A DNA stretch of 51,549 bases from Candidatus Methylomirabilota bacterium (GTDB taxonomy: Bacteria > Methylomirabilota > Methylomirabilia > Rokubacteriales > CSP1-6), in NCBI GenBank assembly GCA_035249225.1, contig DATFGS010000274.1, positions 1 to 51,549 on the forward strand, read 5' to 3'. Made by a program: the position numbers and the translations under genes. Each line of letters opens with the position of its first letter. The first letter of the stretch is position 1. Positions 4,139 to 23,156 of this stretch are shown in pieces. Under the pieces are notes generated by a model. It was not told the origin of the DNA, did no database searches, and saw only the letters and a program-made list of their open reading frames with translations.

Positions 4139-4771
4139 TCATGCCCGGAGCTTCCGCCCGGTCTCGCGGGCCTGGTTGAGGCGGGCCATCGCATCATGGG
4201 AACCTCCCTCGTGGTCGGGGTGCGCGGCCTTGGCGAGTTTGCGATAGGCGTCGTCGATCTGCTCGAGGCTGGCGGTCGGCAGCACGCCCAGGATCTCGAA
4301 CCATTGCTCGCCCGCAGGGAGCGCGGCGTAGCCGGCGAACGCCTGCTCCAGCGTGCCCACGCCGTAGCGGTCGACGGCGCGGATGGCCTCGATGTGGGCC
4401 GCGATCGCGGCGATGTTATCGGCGACGCGGAGCCAGCGGTCACAGGCGAGCGTACGCGGCTTGCCCTCGAGCTGGAAGTAGACGGCCGCGCCCGGGTCAA
4501 GGGGGTCGCGTTGGTCGGAGCGGGGAAGGCCGTCGAGACGGAGAACGAGATTCGTCGAGAGGATCTCGTTCGCCGCGCCGAGGCGATCCAGTTCAAGGCG
4601 GAGGCGCTGGGTCGCAGTGTAGACGGAGATCTCGCTGGATGTCCGCCATGACTGCTGGCCGTCGCTACTGTACTTCCGCGAGCTCTGCGAGAAGCGGGCG
4701 CGCTGGCGGTGGCGCGGCTCGGTCCGGCGCCAGCCGGCGGGCCACGCGAGCGGGTAGCGTTGTTGATTCAT
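4139..4771 (-). CDS. J-domain (DnaJ-like) protein
   Basis: C-terminal J domain WFEILGVLPTASLEQIDDAYRKLAKAAHPDHEGG with the HPD motif. Start ATG 4771 (MNQQRYPLAWPAGW) has an ATGA overlap. Confidence 0.8.
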   Translation of the reverse strand: MNQQRYPLAWPAGWRRTEPRHRQRARFSQSSRKYSSDGQQSWRTSSEISVYTATQRLRLELDRLGAANEILSTNLVLRLDGLPRSDQRDPLDPGAAVYFQLEGKPRTLACDRWLRVADNIAAIAAHIEAIRAVDRYGVGTLEQAFAGYAALPAGEQWFEILGVLPTASLEQIDDAYRKLAKAAHPDHEGGSHDAMARLNQARETGRKLRA

Positions 4772-10325: not shown

Positions 10326-11351
10326 TCACCGCGCCACCGCCGCACAGATCACCAGCCACATCAGTCCCACCGGTCCGACGCGGCAGAAGATCGTCCCGCT
10401 CGCGAGTACCGCCCCGCAGACCGCGGCCGCCGACCAAGGTTCGCCGAACTGCACGCCCGCCCCGACCCGCCACGCGAAGGCGAGCACCGCCACCGCCCCG
10501 AGCCAGCCGTACTCGACCGCATGCTGCACCGGCTCACAGTGAAACGAGTCCATCGTCGGCCACCCCGCGCGCAGCGTGTACGACCGCAGCCGCACGCCCA
10601 CCCCGTAGCCGCCGAAGAGCCCGCGCGTCCCGACCCAGCCGATCCTCGAGCGCGTGCACCACCGCCACGCCAGCGCGACCCCCCGCGTCCGCATCCAGAG
10701 CGAGTCGAGCGAGTCCCCGCGCGGCGTCCACCGCTCCACCCACCCGACCCGCTTCCCCCCGCGCAGCCGGATCCCCAGCACGGCGACCCCCACCAGCGCG
10801 ACCCACAGCGCCCCCGTCCACGGCCACCGCACGACCGACGCGGCCGCGAGCGCGACGACCGCCAGCCACGAGGGCCCCGAGAGCCAGAGCCCCACGCCGT
10901 ACACCGGCCACGTCCAGGGCGACGAAAGCGCCATCACCAGCGCGAGGAACGCGCCGACGAAGGTCCGCTGCCCGAGCCAGGCGTGCACGCGCTGACCGAC
11001 CCACCAGTCGTCAAGCGCGCACGCCACGCAGAGACACGCGGCGGCCTGCCAGCCCGCGAGCACGTACTCCCAGCCCCAGCTCGGCACCGCACGCGCGAGA
11101 TACCACGTCGCCGCGATCCCGACCCAGGTCCACGCCGCCTCGCTATGCTCGTCTGATCGCCAGCTCCAGAGGAACCACGTCGCCATCGCGGCGAGCCACC
11201 ACTCGCCCTGGGCGGCCGCGACCGAGCCGCCGACGGCGATCAAAGCGAGCAGCCAGAGCGAGCGCGCCCCGTTGATCTGGTCGGCGGCGATCCACTCCAG
11301 CCGGAGCATCGGCGCGGCGAGGGCCGCGAGGGTGGCGAGGAGGGCGGTCAC
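10326..11351 (-). CDS. O-antigen ligase/polymerase-like polytopic membrane protein (Wzy_C family), divergent paralog 2
   Basis: 341 aa, about 10 TM segments. Motifs: LGQRTFVGAFLALV and GGYGVGVRLRSYTLRAGWPTMDSFHCEPVQHAVEYGWLG. GTG 11351 forms a GTGA overlap with the radical SAM stop. Confidence 0.65.
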   Translation of the reverse strand: MTALLATLAALAAPMLRLEWIAADQINGARSLWLLALIAVGGSVAAAQGEWWLAAMATWFLWSWRSDEHSEAAWTWVGIAATWYLARAVPSWGWEYVLAGWQAAACLCVACALDDWWVGQRVHAWLGQRTFVGAFLALVMALSSPWTWPVYGVGLWLSGPSWLAVVALAAASVVRWPWTGALWVALVGVAVLGIRLRGGKRVGWVERWTPRGDSLDSLWMRTRGVALAWRWCTRSRIGWVGTRGLFGGYGVGVRLRSYTLRAGWPTMDSFHCEPVQHAVEYGWLGAVAVLAFAWRVGAGVQFGEPWSAAAVCGAVLASGTIFCRVGPVGLMWLVICAAVAR

Positions 11352-12331
11352 AACAAAATCTCCTCTTGGGCGTAGTGACTGGGCTTTGCCTGGTAGCGGG
11401 AGCCGACCCAATCCGCCCAGGGGACGACCTTGTCGTAGCCGCGCAGGACCCACCGCTGATAGCCCATCAGCTCGGGTGTCCGGTTGAAGACCATCGGATA
11501 GGGGAGTGCGCCGAAGTCGCGAAGCTGGCGCCGTCGGGTCTCGCGGTCCTCGTGCGTCTCGCCGGGCCAGTAGCCGATCAGCATATAGACCATGATGTTC
11601 CGCGGCTTGACGCCGTGACGAACCAGGGCTTCGAGGCCCGCGAAGAGCCGGGCCCCATCTTTCTTGTTGTCCCACGCCGTATAAATCCGCCGACGCAGCA
11701 TCCCGTCGTCGCGGTAGTCGACGCTCGCGATCGCGGCGGCGGTCTCGTCGGTGAGCATCCGCGCGTTGATGCCCTGATTAAACGAGACGCGGAACCGGCC
11801 GGCGCGCAGCTCGTCAATACGATCTCTCCAGCGCGGCTGACCGAAGAAATCGTTATCGAGCAGGAAGACCTCGCGGGGCCAGGGATCGCCGCGCCAGATC
11901 TCCGCGATCGTCGCCTCCTCCCGGACCGCGCCCTCTTTGCGAGGCACGACGCAGAACGAGCAGCGAAGGCGGCACCCGCGCTGCGTGAAGCCGAGCGAGG
12001 GGCGGAAGCGCGGATAGAGCGAATAGTCGAGGGCCATCGTGTCCACGCCCAGCGACTCCAGGCCGAGGCCGATGTCCCAGCCGGTGCCGCCGAGGATCGC
12101 GCCCGGGTACAGGCGGCGGACGAGTTCAGCGGCGGGCCGGGTTCGCTCGAAGATCAACGAGCCATAGACGCGGTCCCAGGCGGCGGGGTCGCCAAGCTGG
12201 GGCGCGACGAGGCGCGGATTATCCGCGCGCCGAAACTCGACGACATCGCCGCGGCCTTTGTGCCAGGCCGACAGGCGCATGAGGGCCAGGTTAGGCAGCT
12301 TCCCGTCTAGGTGCAGGAGGAGGACACGCAT
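11348..12331 (-). CDS. Radical SAM enzyme with N-terminal B12-binding-like domain
   Basis: CxxxCxxC cluster motif GCRLRCSFCVVP. N-terminal MRVLLLHLDGKLPNLALMRLSAWHK is Rossmann-like. Start is ATG 12331 (alternative 12358). Confidence 0.8.
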   Translation of the reverse strand: MRVLLLHLDGKLPNLALMRLSAWHKGRGDVVEFRRADNPRLVAPQLGDPAAWDRVYGSLIFERTRPAAELVRRLYPGAILGGTGWDIGLGLESLGVDTMALDYSLYPRFRPSLGFTQRGCRLRCSFCVVPRKEGAVREEATIAEIWRGDPWPREVFLLDNDFFGQPRWRDRIDELRAGRFRVSFNQGINARMLTDETAAAIASVDYRDDGMLRRRIYTAWDNKKDGARLFAGLEALVRHGVKPRNIMVYMLIGYWPGETHEDRETRRRQLRDFGALPYPMVFNRTPELMGYQRWVLRGYDKVVPWADWVGSRYQAKPSHYAQEEILL

Positions 12332-12363
12332 TAAGTGTCCGTCCCACAAGGCAAACATAGGCG

Positions 12364-12420
12364 TTGACAGAACGAAGCAGCTTCGTTATTCTTCTGACAC
12401 AACGAAGCGGCTTCGATAAT
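12364..12420 (+). promoter_or_regulatory. Tandem duplicated promoter-operator unit driving the plus-strand island
   Basis: TTGACA (12364-12369), 17 nt, TATTCT (12387-12392), with palindrome AACGAAGC-A-GCTTCGTT (12371-12387) filling the spacer. The second unit is CTGACA (12394-12399), CGAAGC-G-GCTTCG (12403-12415), GATAAT (12415-12420). AGGAGG SD at 12429-12434. Confidence 0.6.
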
Positions 12421-12438
12421 CCCTAACAGGAGGACGGT

Positions 12439-12855
12439 ATGAACAGGATCCAGGTGAAGGTGGGCGGGAAGCTGATCGGCGAGCGCAAGACGCCGCGCTC
12501 GTACACGCACGCGGTCGTGGCCGAGCGGTTCGCGCGCGTCGACTGCGAGCGCGTTCCGGTCCCGGCCGTGAACGGCGTGCCGCAGTCGGACCGGATGAAC
12601 CGCACCGTCGTCCCGGTGGAGCCCCAGCTCGAAGTGATCTCCTACCACCACGGCCTGCCGCTGGCGATGAAGGGGCTCGCCGCCTTCGAGGCGCAATACT
12701 GGCACCGCGAGACGTACCGGAACGCGACGGTGTTCGTCGCCGAGATCGTGCCCGTGCAGCCGCGCAAGCCCGTCACCCTGACGGAGCCCTGCCCCTCGTG
12801 CGGGACGCGCCAGGGCAACCACCCGCGCGGCTGCGAAAACCGAGAGGGCGACTAG
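12439..12855 (+). CDS. Hypothetical protein (138 aa), first gene of plus-strand island
   Basis: AGGAGG SD 5 nt upstream. C-terminal CPSCG...GC motif. No recognisable family. Confidence 0.7.
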   Translation: MNRIQVKVGGKLIGERKTPRSYTHAVVAERFARVDCERVPVPAVNGVPQSDRMNRTVVPVEPQLEVISYHHGLPLAMKGLAAFEAQYWHRETYRNATVFVAEIVPVQPRKPVTLTEPCPSCGTRQGNHPRGCENREGD

Positions 12856-13020
12856 ATGGCCGACGAGGAGACGATCAACGTGATCCTCGCGGACTCCGAC
12901 GCCGTCTGCGATTGCGGCGCGGATCCGCGGTTCGTCCACTCGCTCGACGGGTGGTTCTTCGAGATCCGGCAGACGCCGACCGCCGACGTGGCGATCGTGC
13001 GCTGCCCCCTCTGCTGGTAA
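12856..13020 (+). CDS. Tiny zinc-ribbon-like protein (54 aa; below the ORF-track cutoff)
   Basis: TAGATG junction. Product is MADEETINVILADSDAVCDCG...VRCPLCW (CxC...CxxC). Confidence 0.5.
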   Translation: MADEETINVILADSDAVCDCGADPRFVHSLDGWFFEIRQTPTADVAIVRCPLCW

Positions 13021-13041
13021 CCCATAACCGAGGAGGTCACC

Positions 13042-13443
13042 ATGACCACCACCACGAAGACCCCACTCACCCCATCCGGCGAAGTGCCGGACCTGTTCGA
13101 CCGGCTGCTCGCCGGCCTGATCGGTCGCCCCGACGTGATGAGCACGAAGCCCTCGACGCGCCAGACGGTCCCGCCCCTCGGGATCGGCGGCGTCGCGACC
13201 TACGTCGTCCGGACCTTCCGCGTCCAGGACGAGGACCGCGCCTCCGAGGATCTGATCTTCCTGGAGTGCTACGACGCGAAGGGGCAGACGCGCCTCGCCC
13301 TGCCCCCGGCCGTCGCGGACATCATCGCCCGGCAGCGCGAGGCCCTCACCACGAAGAGCCGCACCGCGGCGGCGAAGCGCGTCGCCGCCGATCGCAAGGC
13401 GCGCGGCGAGAAGCCCGCCTTCATGCGGAAGCGGGGAGGCTGA
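13042..13443 (+). CDS. Hypothetical protein (133 aa) with basic C-terminal tail
   Basis: GAGGAGG SD. The C-terminus KSRTAAAKRVAADRKARGEKPAFMRKRGG suggests nucleic-acid binding. Confidence 0.65.
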   Translation: MTTTTKTPLTPSGEVPDLFDRLLAGLIGRPDVMSTKPSTRQTVPPLGIGGVATYVVRTFRVQDEDRASEDLIFLECYDAKGQTRLALPPAVADIIARQREALTTKSRTAAAKRVAADRKARGEKPAFMRKRGG

Positions 13444-13446
13444 TCC

Positions 13447-13647
13447 ATGAAGAGCCGGCTCACCATCGTTCGGAACTGCAAGCGCGCTGGGATGACCCGC
13501 GCCGAGGTCGCCGCGAAGATCCGCGGCTCGATCACGGAGGCCAGCACCCGCGAGGGCTGGAGCAAGGCCGAAACCGCGATGGCCCTCGCGGAATGGCACC
13601 GGCATCTGGACAAGGTCTTCGGGAAGGAGGAGGCCCACCCGTGCTAG
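13447..13647 (+). CDS. Small putative HTH protein (66 aa)
   Basis: CKRAGMTRAEVAAKIRGS resembles a helix-turn-helix. Starts 3 nt after the previous stop. Confidence 0.5.
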   Translation: MKSRLTIVRNCKRAGMTRAEVAAKIRGSITEASTREGWSKAETAMALAEWHRHLDKVFGKEEAHPC

Positions 13648-13808
13648 AGTCCCCGGCCATGAAGACCCCGGCGCCGACCTGCCCCAAGCATCCCCACGTC
13701 CGCCTCCGCTGCCCGGCCTGTAACGGCCGGAAGGGGGGTAAGGTGATGAGCCCGAAGAAGCTGAAGGCCCTGAAGCGGATCTCGAAGCTCCCGCGCCCGC
13801 GGGAGTAG
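13641..13808 (+). CDS. Tiny zinc-ribbon protein with basic tail (55 aa from GTG 13641; 49 aa from ATG 13659)
   Basis: GGAAGGAGGAGG SD 8 nt before the GTG. CPKH...CPAC plus KKLKALKRISKLPRPRE. Confidence 0.45.
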   Translation: MLESPAMKTPAPTCPKHPHVRLRCPACNGRKGGKVMSPKKLKALKRISKLPRPRE

Positions 13809-13817
13809 CCCGCCCCC

Positions 13818-13849
13818 GCGGGCGGCGTGCCAGCTCGGACGCCGCCCGC
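13818..13849. terminator. GC-rich hairpin between convergent transcription units
   Basis: GCGGGCGGCG (13818-13827), 12-nt loop, CGCCGCCCGC (13840-13849). It lies between the plus-strand stop at 13808 and the minus-strand stop at 13851. No U-tract. Confidence 0.45.
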
Positions 13850-18290: not shown

Positions 18291-18541
18291 GCGGGCACCA
18301 CGACATCCGTCGGGTCGGTCACCGCGGCCAGCCGGTCGACGATCGCCTTAGCGTCCTTCGACGCGACCCCCTCCCGGTCGAAGACGGTGATGCAGACGAA
18401 CAGCGAGCGCCGGACCTGGGGCGGGTAGGGGACGTGGAGCTTCCCCGTCTCTAGGTCGCGCTGAATCGAGCGGGCGACCCGCACGGCGTCGTCGAGCGTC
18501 ATCTTCGCCGCCGCCTCGGCGATGGTCTGGGCCTGGCTCAT
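18284..18541 (-). CDS. Hypothetical protein (85 aa)
   Basis: The start was trimmed to ATG 18541 (ATGA overlap with the ATPase stop). Confidence 0.55.
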   Translation of the reverse strand: MSQAQTIAEAAAKMTLDDAVRVARSIQRDLETGKLHVPYPPQVRRSLFVCITVFDREGVASKDAKAIVDRLAAVTDPTDVVVPAW

Positions 18542-19875
18542 GCGGCGCTCCTCGCGAGCAGCGTGTTCACTTCCATGATCGCGGCCGGGTCCTTCGCCGC
18601 GACCTTCTTGAATAGCTCGATCGCGTCCTGGCACGCCGCGAAGTCGACCTTCTCGATGTCGTCCGTCCCGAACATCGACTTGAAGAGGCGGATGCGGGCG
18701 TCCTTGCCGATCGGCGGGTCCCACTTGTCGAGCTCGCGGTGGAGTTCCTGTTCATCGGACATCGGCCCGAGCGGGCTCTCGACCGCGGGCGGTGCGATGA
18801 CCGGAGCCGGGGCCTTGACCTCCGGGATCTGCGACTGGCGGAGGTCGGCCCGGATCTTCTCGAGCCCGGCCTTCAGGGTGGCGCTCGGCAACGGCTGGAT
18901 CTTCGCCCACTGGCGGACGCCGAACCCGATGGCGAGGAGCCGGGCCTTCGCCTCGACCTGCTCGCGCGCCTGACCGGGGTGGGCCTTCTGGAGTTCGGTG
19001 ACGATGTCCTTCAAGATCTGCTCGCGGTCGTCTGGAACAACTGTTTCTTGAGCCGACGCGGGGGCGGTGGCGCCGCTGCGGGGACTCGAACCCCGTTCTT
19101 CGCCTTGAAGGGGCGAGGGCCTACCCGTAGCCGACAGCGGCTCGGTCCCGCCGCGCGCCCAGGCCGCGAGCTTCGCGCCCGTCTCCTCGGTGATCGGCTT
19201 GTCGAGTGGGAAGAACTCCCGATGCTGCTCCTGCAGTTTGATCGGCTGCGGCACGCCCGGCTTGTCGGGCAGGAGGAGGATGCTCACGGTCAACTCGTAG
19301 GGGAGGTTCTTCTCGCAGATCGGAACCCACCCCTTGAACCCGGCGAGGGTCTGTTTCGGGACGACCTTCGTCTCGCCGCGCTCCTTGATAATCTCGATCT
19401 TGTCCTCCGCGCGCATGCACAGGATCAGGTGCGCGCGGCACTGGAGCAGCTTCGAGACCATCCGGCGGTGCTCGCCCTTGGGCTTCACCCAGGACAGCAT
19501 CTTGACCTTGTCCTCGCCGCCGAGCCGCTTCAGCTCCGCCTCCTGCATATCCAGGATGCCGCCCTCGCCCGCGTGCTCGTGCGAGAACGAGTCGACGACG
19601 ATGACCGGATAGCCGGCCTTGTCGGCGGCGACGATCGCCTCCTGATAGGCCGAGGGCGAGAACGGCGGATGGAGGTCGGCATGATCGAACTGGAAGCGGT
19701 CGGCGTAGTGCTTCGCGCGGCCGGCTTCGGTGTCGATGACCGCGAAGGGCTTGTCGCCCGACATCCCCTTGGCGAGGCGCATCGCGGTATAGGTCTTGCC
19801 GCCGCCGCTGGCGCCGGCCAGGCCGAGGATCAGGCCGACGCTCTCGCGCTTGGCCGGGCGGAAGGAGATGGTCAC
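18538..19875 (-). CDS. Sak4-like / AAA_24-type RecA-fold ATPase with long C-terminal extension
   Basis: Walker A GLAGASGGGKT and Walker B VIVVDSFSHE. GTG 19875 forms a GTGA overlap. The ORF stays open through an embedded tRNA-like element (19068-19141) into a ~180-aa C-terminal region. Confidence 0.75.
   Translation of the reverse strand: MTISFRPAKRESVGLILGLAGASGGGKTYTAMRLAKGMSGDKPFAVIDTEAGRAKHYADRFQFDHADLHPPFSPSAYQEAIVAADKAGYPVIVVDSFSHEHAGEGGILDMQEAELKRLGGEDKVKMLSWVKPKGEHRRMVSKLLQCRAHLILCMRAEDKIEIIKERGETKVVPKQTLAGFKGWVPICEKNLPYELTVSILLLPDKPGVPQPIKLQEQHREFFPLDKPITEETGAKLAAWARGGTEPLSATGRPSPLQGEERGSSPRSGATAPASAQETVVPDDREQILKDIVTELQKAHPGQAREQVEAKARLLAIGFGVRQWAKIQPLPSATLKAGLEKIRADLRQSQIPEVKAPAPVIAPPAVESPLGPMSDEQELHRELDKWDPPIGKDARIRLFKSMFGTDDIEKVDFAACQDAIELFKKVAAKDPAAIMEVNTLLARSAA
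19068..19141 (-). tRNA. tRNA-like cloverleaf (Glu-like anticodon UUC, C33, encoded CCA) nested in frame inside the ATPase ORF
   Basis: Minus-strand sequence: GCCGCTG TC GGCT ACGGGTA GGCC C TCGCC CCTTCAA GGCGA AGAA CGGGG TTCGAGT CCCCG CAGCGGC G CCA. It has a 7-bp acceptor stem, U8, GG in the D-loop, G53-C61 and a consensus T-loop. Position 33 is C instead of U. Confidence 0.6.
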
Positions 19876-20207
19876 GCCGGGATCCCCTCCGCGGCCGGCC
19901 GGGCGACCTCGAACGTCTCGCGGAGCTGCTTGTAGTGCTTCTCGCAGAGCCACTGCTTCATCTTGTAGTGGTAGTCCGCGATCGGGTCCTCGCAGATCCC
20001 GTCATCGTCGATCCGACACAGCGACGGTGTCTCGCGCTTCGCGATCTCCAGGTTCTGCTCGATGAGGCGGTAGCCCGCATGGTTGTGGTAGTACGTCATC
20101 GAAGACTCGGAGACGTCCTGCGCGGCCTTAACCGCCTCGCGCTCGCTGCCGGCCAGGACCTCGACCTCTTCGACCGTGACCCGCCGCACCGTGTACTTCG
20201 TGATCAT
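19872..20207 (-). CDS. Hypothetical protein (111 aa)
   Basis: The start was trimmed to ATG 20207 (ATGA overlap). Product is MITKYTVRRVTVEEVEVLAG...CEKHYKQL. Confidence 0.6.
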   Translation of the reverse strand: MITKYTVRRVTVEEVEVLAGSEREAVKAAQDVSESSMTYYHNHAGYRLIEQNLEIAKRETPSLCRIDDDGICEDPIADYHYKMKQWLCEKHYKQLRETFEVARPAAEGIPA

Positions 20208-21560: not shown

Positions 21561-21872
21561 TTAGGTTCCCCGAGCGCCTTGAGAATGAGCCGCGCGGCGC
21601 GCACGAGGTCCGCTCGGGTTACTCGATCCTTCCGACGGGAGGACATCTTGGCGGGCGGTTTTCGGGCCTGGATCAAGGGACGCGCGCCGAAGACGCCTCC
21701 GATCAGCGAGGAGTTTCTCCGCCGCGGTCCGCACGCGATCACTGCCGTAGCGCCCCGCCAGAAAGTGCACCACCATCGTCCGGGTGACCCCCGCCGCGAC
21801 CGCGACGTGGTCCTGGGTGATCTTGGCTTTCTTGAGTTGCTTCTTCAGTTGCAGTACGGTCCCGGCACTCAC
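21561..21872 (-). CDS. Cro-position HTH regulator (XRE-type), first gene of the long minus-strand operon; 3' end uncertain
   Basis: LKKAKITQDHVAVAAGVTRTMVVHFLAGRYGSDRVRTAAEKLL. The GTG start lies inside operator O1. Third-position GC collapses after about codon 60, while an overlapping frame (21536..21742) looks more coding-like. Confidence 0.6.
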   Translation of the reverse strand: MSAGTVLQLKKQLKKAKITQDHVAVAAGVTRTMVVHFLAGRYGSDRVRTAAEKLLADRRRLRRASLDPGPKTARQDVLPSEGSSNPSGPRARRAAHSQGARGT

Positions 21873-21931
21873 GGTGAGGGAGACTACTACTCACGGTGAG
21901 AATCTGTCAAGAGGAATTTTCTCAAGGTGAG
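21868..21931. promoter_or_regulatory. Immunity switch: three CTCAnGGTGAG operators plus a divergent promoter region
   Basis: O1 CTCACGGTGAG at 21868-21878, O2 CTCACGGTGAG at 21890-21900, O3 CTCAAGGTGAG at 21921-21931. Centre spacings are 22 and 31 bp. Minus-strand TTGACA at 21910-21905, 18 nt, TAGTCT at 21886-21881, ending about 8 nt before GTG 21872. Confidence 0.65.
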
Positions 21932-22235
21932 ACGCCGCCGGACTGAGATCGAGGGCGTGGCCCCCGTAAGCTATGAGGAAGCCGAGGGGATTCCAGGCTT
22001 TACCGAGTTCTGCGAGGCGCGACCGACCACCGCGAAGAACCTTCGGACGCGAGACCGGCACAAAATCCCGTGGGAGATCATCGGGCAGCTCTTGATTGTG
22101 GTCTGGCGCGACGGGATCGAGGAGCAGCGGGACCGGATCGCGTTACAGGAACGCGAGAAGGCCCAGATCGCGGCCCTGCGAAAAGTCATGCGGGCTCTCG
22201 ATCTGGCGCGGGATTCGCTCAAAGACCCGGACTGA
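21927..22235 (+). CDS. CI-position protein (102 aa, candidate lysogeny repressor; no clear HTH recognised)
   Basis: Divergent from the Cro-like gene. The GTG start lies inside O3, with GAGGAA about 10 nt upstream. C-terminal coiled-coil: EEQRDRIALQEREKAQIAALRKVMRALDLARDSL. Confidence 0.5.
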   Translation: MRRRRTEIEGVAPVSYEEAEGIPGFTEFCEARPTTAKNLRTRDRHKIPWEIIGQLLIVVWRDGIEEQRDRIALQEREKAQIAALRKVMRALDLARDSLKDPD

Positions 22236-22256
22236 GTAAGGACAGGTTCCGCTTTA

Positions 22257-22267
22257 CTCATGGTGAG
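22257..22267. promoter_or_regulatory. Fourth operator-like site (O4)
   Basis: CTCATGGTGAG. The 15-mer TACTCAyGGTGAGAA is shared with O2. Confidence 0.5.
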
Positions 22268-22326
22268 AACGTGCTATGTTCTCGCGTACCGCCGGAGGGG
22301 GAGCCGAGCGGCGGCAGGAGGGCCCG

Positions 22327-22926
22327 ATGAGAGCCTTCGCGTGGGTGCTGGTCGGATTTGGCTTGGTAATCGTGGTGATGGCGATGTATATGACGACGGC
22401 GGACAACCGCGCACGTCGGCAGGCGGCGGTCACCATTGCCGCACGTGGCGGCGGCTATACGCAACCCGAGGAGAGGTCGCCGACCGCCGGGATCTTCTTC
22501 GGCTTCGGGATGACGGCCCTCGGCGTGCTCGTCCTCGCCGTCCGCCGCCCCGGATCGCCGGTCATCGTGGTCGCCCTGTTCCTGCTCTCTGGGTGCACCC
22601 TTCCGGGCTACCAGGGCGGGCCGATACCGCGGACGACGCAGTACACCTACCCGGGGCGCTCCTTCAATCCGGATACCGGGCTCGCCCACAGCCCGATCCC
22701 GACCGTCGCCGAGCCGCTTGACGGCGGCGTGTTCGTCTACGGGATGGTCTTTCACGATGGCAGCAGCGCGAACAGCGTCGACCCGTTCGACACCTTCGCC
22801 GCGTGCGAGACTGGCCGCCGGGCCTATGCCGACCTAACGGCTGAGCGGGTCAAGGACGGGGCGGCGCCGGTGATGACGACGAAGTGTTTCCGGGCCCACG
22901 ACACGGGCGGGCACCAAACCCGATGA
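22327..22926 (+). CDS. Membrane protein with internal lipobox-like LLSGC and a periplasmic Cys-pair domain (199 aa)
   Basis: AGGAGGG SD before ATG 22327. Hydrophobic segments AFAWVLVGFGLVIVVMAMYM, GIFFGFGMTALGVLVLAV and VIVVALFLLSGC. Confidence 0.65.
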   Translation: MRAFAWVLVGFGLVIVVMAMYMTTADNRARRQAAVTIAARGGGYTQPEERSPTAGIFFGFGMTALGVLVLAVRRPGSPVIVVALFLLSGCTLPGYQGGPIPRTTQYTYPGRSFNPDTGLAHSPIPTVAEPLDGGVFVYGMVFHDGSSANSVDPFDTFAACETGRRAYADLTAERVKDGAAPVMTTKCFRAHDTGGHQTR

Positions 22927-23156
22927 CCAGCGTCGCGGCGGCCTGCCTCTATCTTCTGATGTTCTGCCCGGCTGATGCGATCCCGCCCGCTGCGCCGCCG
23001 CTCGCGCACGGCCAAGGGTTCTGGGCGATCTATAAGACGCTTCCGGACGGGACGGAGCGCGCGGAGACTTACGAGAACGCCGATGCTTGCGCGGCGGATT
23101 CGACGGTGCTGCGGGACTTCGGGCACGACGCTTCGATCTGCTACGAGCTGCTCTAG
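22923..23156 (+). CDS. Small secreted protein (77 aa) related to the C-terminal domain of the preceding gene
   Basis: ATGA overlap. Signal-like MTSVAAACLYLLMFCPADA. Shares the ...ACA/ACE...C(F/Y) Cys-pair pattern. Confidence 0.55.
   Translation: MTSVAAACLYLLMFCPADAIPPAAPPLAHGQGFWAIYKTLPDGTERAETYENADACAADSTVLRDFGHDASICYELL

Follow-up and report, generated by a model that had tools for sequence, protein, structure and literature searches.

A counter-oriented island of five small genes on a phage-like contig lies behind a dyad-bearing promoter and may be an autoregulated accessory operon

What is a short run of very small genes doing on a phage-like contig whose other genes nearly all point the opposite way? 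The question is raised by positions 12439–13808 of contig DATFGS010000274.1, which we analysed over its full length of 51,549 nucleotides (the window). NCBI lists this contig under a Methylomirabilota metagenome-assembled genome (MAG), and the same sequence is held by ENA as metagenome contig ERZ27257127 k141_2482544 (51,555 bp). The window has a GC content of ∼69%, carries nearly all of its genes on the minus strand, and appears to belong to an uncultured soil phage that encodes a tyrosine recombinase. Among 50,697 deposited phage records, no match was found to the DNA of the island, to its protein C or to the largest (1458-aa) protein of the window. The island consists of five consecutive plus-strand open reading frames (ORFs), A to E. 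We read it, with moderate confidence, as an autonomous, negatively autoregulated accessory operon that runs counter to the phage's early genes. Support for this reading includes two comparative findings: the genes behind the promoter are replaced between close relatives, and the dyad within the promoter occurs together with gene E, the last gene of the unit. Coordinates of all features of the island are collected in Table 1.

Table 1. Promoter elements, genes and terminator candidate of the island (window coordinates)
Feature	Position	Strand	Description
Promoter P1	12364..12392	+	–35 TTGACA (12364–12369), 17-nt spacer, –10 TATTCT (12387–12392)
Operator O1 (candidate)	12371..12387	.	perfect dyad AACGAAGC-A-GCTTCGTT; fills P1 spacer, centre ∼–21
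Decayed second promoter copy	12394..12420	+	CTGACA 12394–12399, 15-nt spacer, GATAAT 12415–12420; from sequence reading and relaxed scan
Operator O2 (candidate)	12401..12417	.	dyad AACGAAGC-G-GCTTCGAT; 30 bp from O1, centre ∼+10
Gene A, 138 aa	12439..12855	+	GC3 0.96; cargo gene, rare family
Gene B, 54 aa	12856..13020	+	GC3 0.95; orphan cargo gene with CxC...CxxC
Gene C, 133 aa	13042..13443	+	widespread uncharacterised phage family
Gene D, 66 aa	13447..13647	+	orphan, predicted three-helix bundle
Gene E, 49 aa (ATG 13659) or 55 aa (GTG 13641, after GGAGGAGG)	13641..13808	+	CxxH...CxxC zinc ribbon and basic tail; last gene
GC-rich hairpin, candidate bidirectional terminator	13818..13849	.	11+2 bp stem, between convergent stops of E (13808) and ruvC (13851)

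The island is a real transcription unit. In all five ORFs, the GC content at third codon positions (GC3) is 0.93–0.96, versus 0.45–0.54 at second positions (GC2), a signature absent from the overlapping long ORFs in other frames. Given the strength of this coding signal in each of the five, we take the genes to be real. The gene caller of the source assembly called the same five. Junctions between the genes are adjacent or overlapping, with the start codon of B abutting the stop codon of A, and the flanking minus-strand genes encode a radical SAM protein (Pfam; PHROG 1.6e-47) and RuvC (PHROG 4.9e-24). A preliminary description of this DNA, made from the sequence alone, had listed five small plus-strand genes (138, 54, 133, 66 and ∼55 aa) and had called the island one of only two plus-strand blocks; the coding signal and the assembly's gene calls agree with the first statement, and the sole other block was located at ∼21.9–23.2 kb. 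Cysteine pairs ascribed to three of the products were likewise seen, as Cys/His pairs in A, B and E. A basic tail, ascribed to one product, is present in two (C and E). The same description recognised no family among the products and called for a search against anti-CRISPR (Acr), anti-CRISPR-associated (Aca) and anti-defence families. Run with Pfam, PHROGs, NCBIfam and PADLOC, this search gave no above-threshold match for any of A–E.

P1 has a sigma-70 score of 10/12, the top match of the whole 51.5-kb window, with transcription predicted to start near 12399. It sits in one of six low-GC patches and is kept in the relative L012, described below. Two copies of a 27-nt direct repeat (12365–12391 and 12395–12421) each contain one 17-bp dyad, O1 or O2, the latter centred ∼10 nt past the predicted transcription start. 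Perfect dyads with arms of at least 8 bp number only 10 in the window, and no other copy of the island dyad exists there at 0–1 mismatches. RNA folding indicates that O2, once transcribed, could form a small 5′ stem-loop; no known RNA family was detected by Rfam in the island or its leader. The preliminary description spoke of a strong duplicated promoter carrying two inverted repeats. The repeated segment, both dyads and the strength of P1 stand. The second promoter copy, by contrast, is probably not functional as a promoter: its spacer is only 15 nt and it is still more decayed in the close relative L012, and for these reasons a second operator is the better reading. At the other end of the unit, in the 42-bp gap before ruvC, lies the hairpin that had been described as common to the island and the convergent ruvC gene, and its stem forms on both strands.

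Homologs of E are found in two other lineages. In L026/L027 (E-values 3e-7 and 1.6e-7), the C-terminal half of a 118-aa ORF is E-like, and this ORF lies immediately upstream of a C homolog. In L088/L093 (E-value 6e-7), a 42-aa E homolog belongs to a four-gene operon that directly follows an integrase gene and contains no C homolog. All three independent E-bearing lineages (3/3) have an O1-type dyad in the 17-nt spacer of a TTGACA promoter that heads the operon. It reads TTGACAgAACGAAGCaGCTTCGTTATTCT in the window, TTGACAgAACCAAGCgGCTTGGTTTATCTT in L088/L093, and TTGACAcCCAAGCtGCTTGGcTGTAGCGT in L026/L027, where the operon so headed contains the E-like gene and C. Neither the extended dyad nor E was found in 477 kb of C-only loci or in the Acidobacteriota MAG loci. 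The dyad therefore tracks E rather than C or D: E-bearing lineages have it, C-only loci lack both, and L088 and L027 lack D. Across the six dyad sites, 93.8% of cells are complementary, and pair 4–14 is evenly split, three sites having CG and three GC; we take the symmetry of the dyad to be under selection. Based on the co-occurrence in three lineages, we infer that E is the cognate autorepressor, and we treat it below as the candidate that binds the dyad.

Scans with a strict promoter pattern (19 specified bases) returned no match in the viral collection. In metagenomes, they returned only L016, which is identical to L012, plus matches in unrelated contexts; by our estimate, these extra matches are about as numerous as expected by chance. 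Examples are L014/L018 and L015/L017. The latter two are contigs of ∼50% GC in which TTGACAcAACGAAGCcGCTTCGcTAAAAT (L015 880–900, L017 424–444) lies upstream of a gene guessed, by eye only, to be nitroreductase-like, and their short flanks hold no E homolog. A separate observation concerns the start of translation in two of the related operons. In L088 (3290–3328) and L031 (∼4205–4245), the first start codon comes only 6–7 nt past the –10 element, and hence the mRNAs would be leaderless or nearly so.

The closest relative, L012 (identical to L016), matches the window only at the promoter (76% nucleotide identity) and at C (89% nucleotide and 96% amino acid identity). An unrelated 73-aa gene stands in place of A and B, and the divergent flank also differs. 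O1 is kept in L012. The homologous O2 there, ACCCAAGC-C-GCTTGGGT, differs on both arms by paired substitutions. From this comparison, the genes between the promoter and C appear to be exchangeable cargo. Variation of this kind was seen only as replacement of cargo within the cassette. Relatives of the phage backbone that might show the island as an insertion were sought with both flanking genes, and none lacking the island was found; ruvC gave no loci, and the relatives of the radical SAM gene show no synteny with the window. The L012 contig ends (2011–2036) in the Illumina adapter-like sequence AGATCTGAAGAGCACACGTCTGAACT, and for that reason we regard its copy of C as artificially truncated.

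The cargo genes of the window are themselves rare. A search of a 5.8-billion-protein index with A returned only the query. Four distant homologs (E-values 1e-6 to 3.5e-5) emerged from 1.84 billion representatives, with conservation of an N-terminal domain of ∼100 aa but not of the C-terminal CPSC...H...C motif; no loci for these four were found in viral or genome collections. B has no match in the four family collections named above and no relative in the fetched loci, no protein-database search having been made for it.

How might such a unit work? In the model that we favor, host sigma-70 RNA polymerase would start at P1, near 12399, transcribe A, B, C, D and E in turn, and stop at the GC-rich hairpin common with ruvC. 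E, as a 49- or 55-aa zinc ribbon with a basic tail, would bind as a dimer to O1 in the spacer and to O2 at ∼+10, and this binding would shut P1 off after an initial burst. O2 may additionally act as a 5′ RNA stem-loop. The cargo would most likely act on the host, in anti-defence or in host takeover; to single out anti-defence is conjecture.

Several points weigh against this model. The co-occurrence of E and the dyad comes from three lineages only, and L012/L016, a fourth locus with the dyad, breaks off before reaching the expected place of E. E matches no known DNA-binding family in Pfam, PHROG or NCBIfam. The relaxed pattern scan that gave L088 would be expected to produce ∼10 matches by chance (an estimate, with 17 specified bases); we count L088 nonetheless, solely since its symmetry is extended and an E homolog accompanies it. 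The hairpin lacks a U-tract and has z-scores of only –1.5 and –1.1, modest values that are due to the GC-rich background. Finally, no cargo protein resembles a known anti-defence protein in Pfam, PHROGs, NCBIfam or PADLOC.

C belongs to a widespread family. Its homologs make up 23 protein clusters, 48 IMG/VR loci and 4 Acidobacteriota MAG loci, the MAGs belonging to Acidobacteriaceae, Solibacteraceae, Bryobacteraceae and Vicinamibacterales. Identity to aligned full-length relatives is 37–78%, compared to 96% for the truncated copy in L012. In a 29-sequence alignment of the family, R99 never varies and I95, A96 and Q98 almost never do, giving an IARQR motif. C shows the full-length similarity that marks a family member, including the IARQR(E/D)ALT motif and the basic C-terminal helix. 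An AlphaFold2 (AF2) model with a predicted local distance difference test score (pLDDT) of 87 has a short helix, a five-stranded sheet and a 33-residue basic C-terminal helix. Compared against PDB and BFVD, this model gave nothing significant (best E-values 0.05–0.2, template modeling scores <0.36), and the weak matches to Rad52, LptE and CaMKII-hub folds were judged to be noise. Profile searches with the family found no sequence match in Pfam, PHROG or PDB. A ribbon-helix-helix (RHH) protein of the Arc/Mnt/CopG kind was considered in view of the RLALPPAVADIIARQ pattern and, as the evidence stands, rejected, with a weak RHH_1 match in only 1 of 29 members (E-value 0.09); hhalign of the family against Mnt and CopG, with template sequences entered by hand, gave probabilities <1%. 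C is probably a nucleic-acid-binding protein.

The C-family genes that lie in reference genomes (L067–L070) are all from Acidobacteriota MAGs, two of them on contigs of 132–314 kb, and the window contig is binned with Methylomirabilota. The Methylomirabilota host label of the window may be a binning artefact.

Two further observations come from C neighborhoods. In L002 (3948–4316) and L003 (1056–1424), a gene with an Acb2_Tad1_hairpin domain lies ∼1.7 kb upstream of the C homolog, within the same small-gene cluster. Acb2_Tad1_hairpin is a family of anti-CBASS/anti-Thoeris sponges, and this circumstantial link suggests that C neighborhoods can hold anti-defence genes. In L013 (∼480–600), two direct repeats of ∼37 nt, CTACCGTTGCCAC.GGGAC.TATTGCGGATTCGCGAG, lie ∼60 nt apart in a long non-coding stretch upstream of the C-homolog operon, and this stretch has no tRNA or Rfam match. 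Across ∼40 loci, almost all neighbors of C are singletons.

The positions of C-family genes give rise to a serious rival explanation, in which the island is a lysogeny-side module: a moron or, on the pattern of P22 immI, a secondary immunity region. Its expression would come from the prophage or coincide with the lysis–lysogeny decision, C would be a repressor, antirepressor or exclusion factor, and the dyads would form part of the switch. We consider it unlikely on balance. Members of the C family occur in temperate phages and in prophages of Acidobacteriota, often near integrases, for example at prophage ends, and an integrase directly precedes the E operon of L088. C lies in a short block (up to six genes) between opposite-strand genes in 19 of 39 non-redundant loci, and is the first gene past a strand flip in 12 of the 39, both counts being based on rough gene calls; the former count means that a counter-oriented layout is recurrent in the family. 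Divergent from the C unit in both L028 and L057 is a Cro/CI-type gene of the HTH_3 family (HTH, helix-turn-helix; E-value ∼1e-8); the genes that it leads in L057 look, by eye only, like those for a nuclease and an ERF-type annealing protein. A parallel is offered by P22 immI, itself a variable island under its own regulation that lies inside another operon (PMC8022706).

Other features of the window argue against a lysogeny-side role. There is a separate switch-like region, at ∼21.56–21.96 kb, with different dyads (CTCACGGTGAG). Within the window, the island dyad is confined to the island's own promoter, and hence its binding protein could not repress lytic promoters elsewhere. The 107-bp divergent region toward the radical SAM operon contains no good leftward promoter, the best sigma-70 match scoring 8/12. 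Neither an Arc/Mnt-type RHH domain nor an antirepressor domain was detected. A stronger version, in which the island itself is the main immunity switch, was rejected in view of the separate region and its dyads (∼21.6–22.0 kb). As to that region (∼21561–22300), it includes a gene for a 103-aa minus-strand protein with a weak HTH_3 match (E-value 0.011), divergent from the plus-strand block at 21927–23156, and its dyads are repeated at ∼21863–21900 and 22257. It is probably the main lysis–lysogeny control region.

A second alternative leaves the cargo aside and concerns the dyads: these could be operators bound by a protein acting in trans, whether the host or another part of the phage genome encodes it, or could be mainly structural, and E would then be one more cargo gene. 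We think this improbable. In its favor, no island protein has a recognisable DNA-binding domain in Pfam or NCBIfam. Several C operons (L031, L052, L051/L057 and L013) have near-consensus promoters with unrelated dyads, those of L031, L052 and L051/L057 being as strong as P1, and some of these operons are divergent from HTH genes that could regulate them. Moreover, O2 is changed in L012 by paired substitutions, with O1 unchanged, as for a hairpin. Yet on this alternative, it would be a coincidence that E and the dyad occur together in three lineages. Besides E, these lineages have in common at most C, and that only for the window and L026/L027. In addition, O1 lies in the untranscribed spacer and so cannot act as RNA from P1. 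C was also considered as the operator-binding protein, since L012 retains both it and the promoter. This candidate was downgraded, as L088/L093 have the promoter and dyad without C, and C-only loci are without the dyad.

The preliminary description had proposed a more specific arrangement, an anti-CRISPR or anti-defence operon autoregulated by D as an Aca-type HTH repressor. D does contain the string AGMTRAEVAAKI that had been read as an HTH-like segment. Its best Pfam match, MerR-DNA-bind, is below threshold (E-value 0.0016; 19.5 bits versus a cut-off of 25.4), as is a second weak match, EutK_C (E-value 0.14). In an AF2 model (single sequence, pLDDT 84), D forms three long helices at residues 2–13, 18–36 and 40–58 (12, 19 and 19 residues), and the supposed turn falls inside the continuous helix 18–36. 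Foldseek searches with this model returned only designed helical bundles, all with E-values >1, and no HTH regulators. D is also an orphan, with no homolog besides itself among 5.8 billion proteins and none in any related locus, and the dyad recurs in L088 and L027, both of which lack D. These data argue against D as an HTH regulator, and the model is more consistent with a lineage-specific helical protein. Across lineages it is E, not D, that accompanies the dyad. An Aca-type role for D is thus very improbable. The likeness to acr–aca operons on which the proposal drew holds, and gains strength from the comparison of relatives, for the dyad in the core promoter, the turnover of cargo and the island's own hairpin, and fails for D as regulator. 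Least probable of all is a transcription-takeover module whose small proteins would redirect transcription by binding to, or modifying, the RNA polymerase or sigma factors of the host, and to this we give hardly any credence: support for it is generic (small, basic or zinc-binding proteins behind a strong host-type promoter), and no island protein resembles a known RNA-polymerase-binding phage protein, sigma factor or anti-sigma factor in Pfam, PHROGs or NCBIfam.

The autoregulated-operon reading can be set beside several known systems. In P22 immI, one operator lies between the –35 and –10 elements of a strong promoter, and a second operator lies at the transcription start, an arrangement to which O1 and O2 are similar. 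P2 Ogr and P4 Delta, very small phage proteins that are rich in Cys and bind zinc, recognise DNA of dyad symmetry close to promoters; they are activators of late promoters, bound upstream of –35. E is comparable to Ogr and Delta in being, from its sequence, a tiny Cys-rich zinc-ribbon protein and a candidate for binding a promoter dyad. It differs from them in having no match to their Pfam family and in being proposed as a repressor that acts within the spacer. Like morons, the island is placed among genes of another unit yet has a promoter and a terminator-like hairpin to itself; it also has a low-GC promoter patch, and content that varies between relatives. Unlike morons, which consist of one or two genes, it has five, together with operators.

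The island is like P22 immI (mnt-arc-ant) in that it is independently regulated, variable and embedded in an operon of an opposite or unrelated programme (PMC8022706). In both cases, a small autorepressor is encoded in the operon, the candidate in the island being E. Differences are that the island has neither the Arc/Mnt repressors and antirepressor that define immI, nor any RHH or antirepressor domain, nor a divergent mnt-like gene; its divergent neighbor is the radical SAM gene.

For acr–aca operons, the promoter contains an inverted repeat within its core, often along with a second repeat (PMC9410906). Aca regulators may also bind a 5′-UTR (untranslated region) RNA motif, and Aca14 represents an Aca family that is RHH rather than HTH (PMC13551039). 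The island likewise has a strong promoter with an inverted repeat in its core, namely O1 in the P1 spacer, and a second repeat downstream, and O1 and O2 are conserved in relatives. Small, fast-evolving and mostly orphan genes come first and the candidate regulator last, and the cargo differs between close relatives. The downstream repeat may function both as DNA and as 5′-UTR RNA, as for Aca2 and Aca1 (PMC9410906, PMC13551039). In other respects the two differ. Proteins A–E match no Aca or Acr family, and neither HTH nor RHH is detectable in them with Pfam, NCBIfam or PHROG. No recognised Aca-family member, whether HTH or the RHH Aca14, is encoded in the island. The candidate regulator is a zinc ribbon of 42–55 aa, a type not reported among Aca families in the cited literature, and the conserved gene C has no counterpart in acr–aca operons. 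Membership in the acr–aca and P22 immI classes therefore fails on the defining proteins.

Two other features of the window deserve mention. The radical SAM gene beside the island (11348–12358, minus strand) has relatives at 41–68% identity in 16 IMG/VR phage contigs (L071–L086). These have essentially no neighbors in common with the window, and we take the gene on this basis to be a mobile single-gene module. Its start is probably at 12331 rather than 12358, since alignments of its homologs begin there. Farther away, a tRNA-Glu(UUC) gene with encoded CCA (19068–19141, minus strand) lies in frame and without stop codons inside an AAA_24 ORF of 445/471 aa (18538–19953, minus strand). The tRNA is supported by ARAGORN and by Rfam (51.5 bits, E-value 3.5e-8), and the codon-position GC signal of the ORF collapses exactly at this point. 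There are two possible explanations: the tRNA is genuinely embedded, or what has been taken for a single ORF is in fact two genes and a tRNA.

Autoregulated accessory operons are the main handle for the discovery of anti-defence genes. Such operons have so far been anchored on HTH and, recently, RHH regulators, mostly in Proteobacteria and Firmicutes. If E, a zinc ribbon of 42–55 aa, is the repressor of the dyad, it would stand for a class of regulators that is invisible to Aca profile searches, and would give a way to find cargo genes in soil phages that are uncultured. The C family, with at least 70 members, no Pfam, PHROG or PDB match, and a place in recurrent counter-oriented units behind strong promoters, is a well-defined target for functional work. 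A bolder proposal, which we put forward as speculative and rather doubtful, is that E belongs to a new class of miniature zinc-ribbon Aca-like autorepressors marking hot-swappable cargo cassettes in phages of soil bacteria, and that C represents a widespread fold-orphan family of early phage effectors or regulators, acting as anti-defence proteins or as non-HTH regulators of lysogeny. Were this true, both could serve as guilt-by-association anchors for new counter-defence genes in phages of the Acidobacteriota type.

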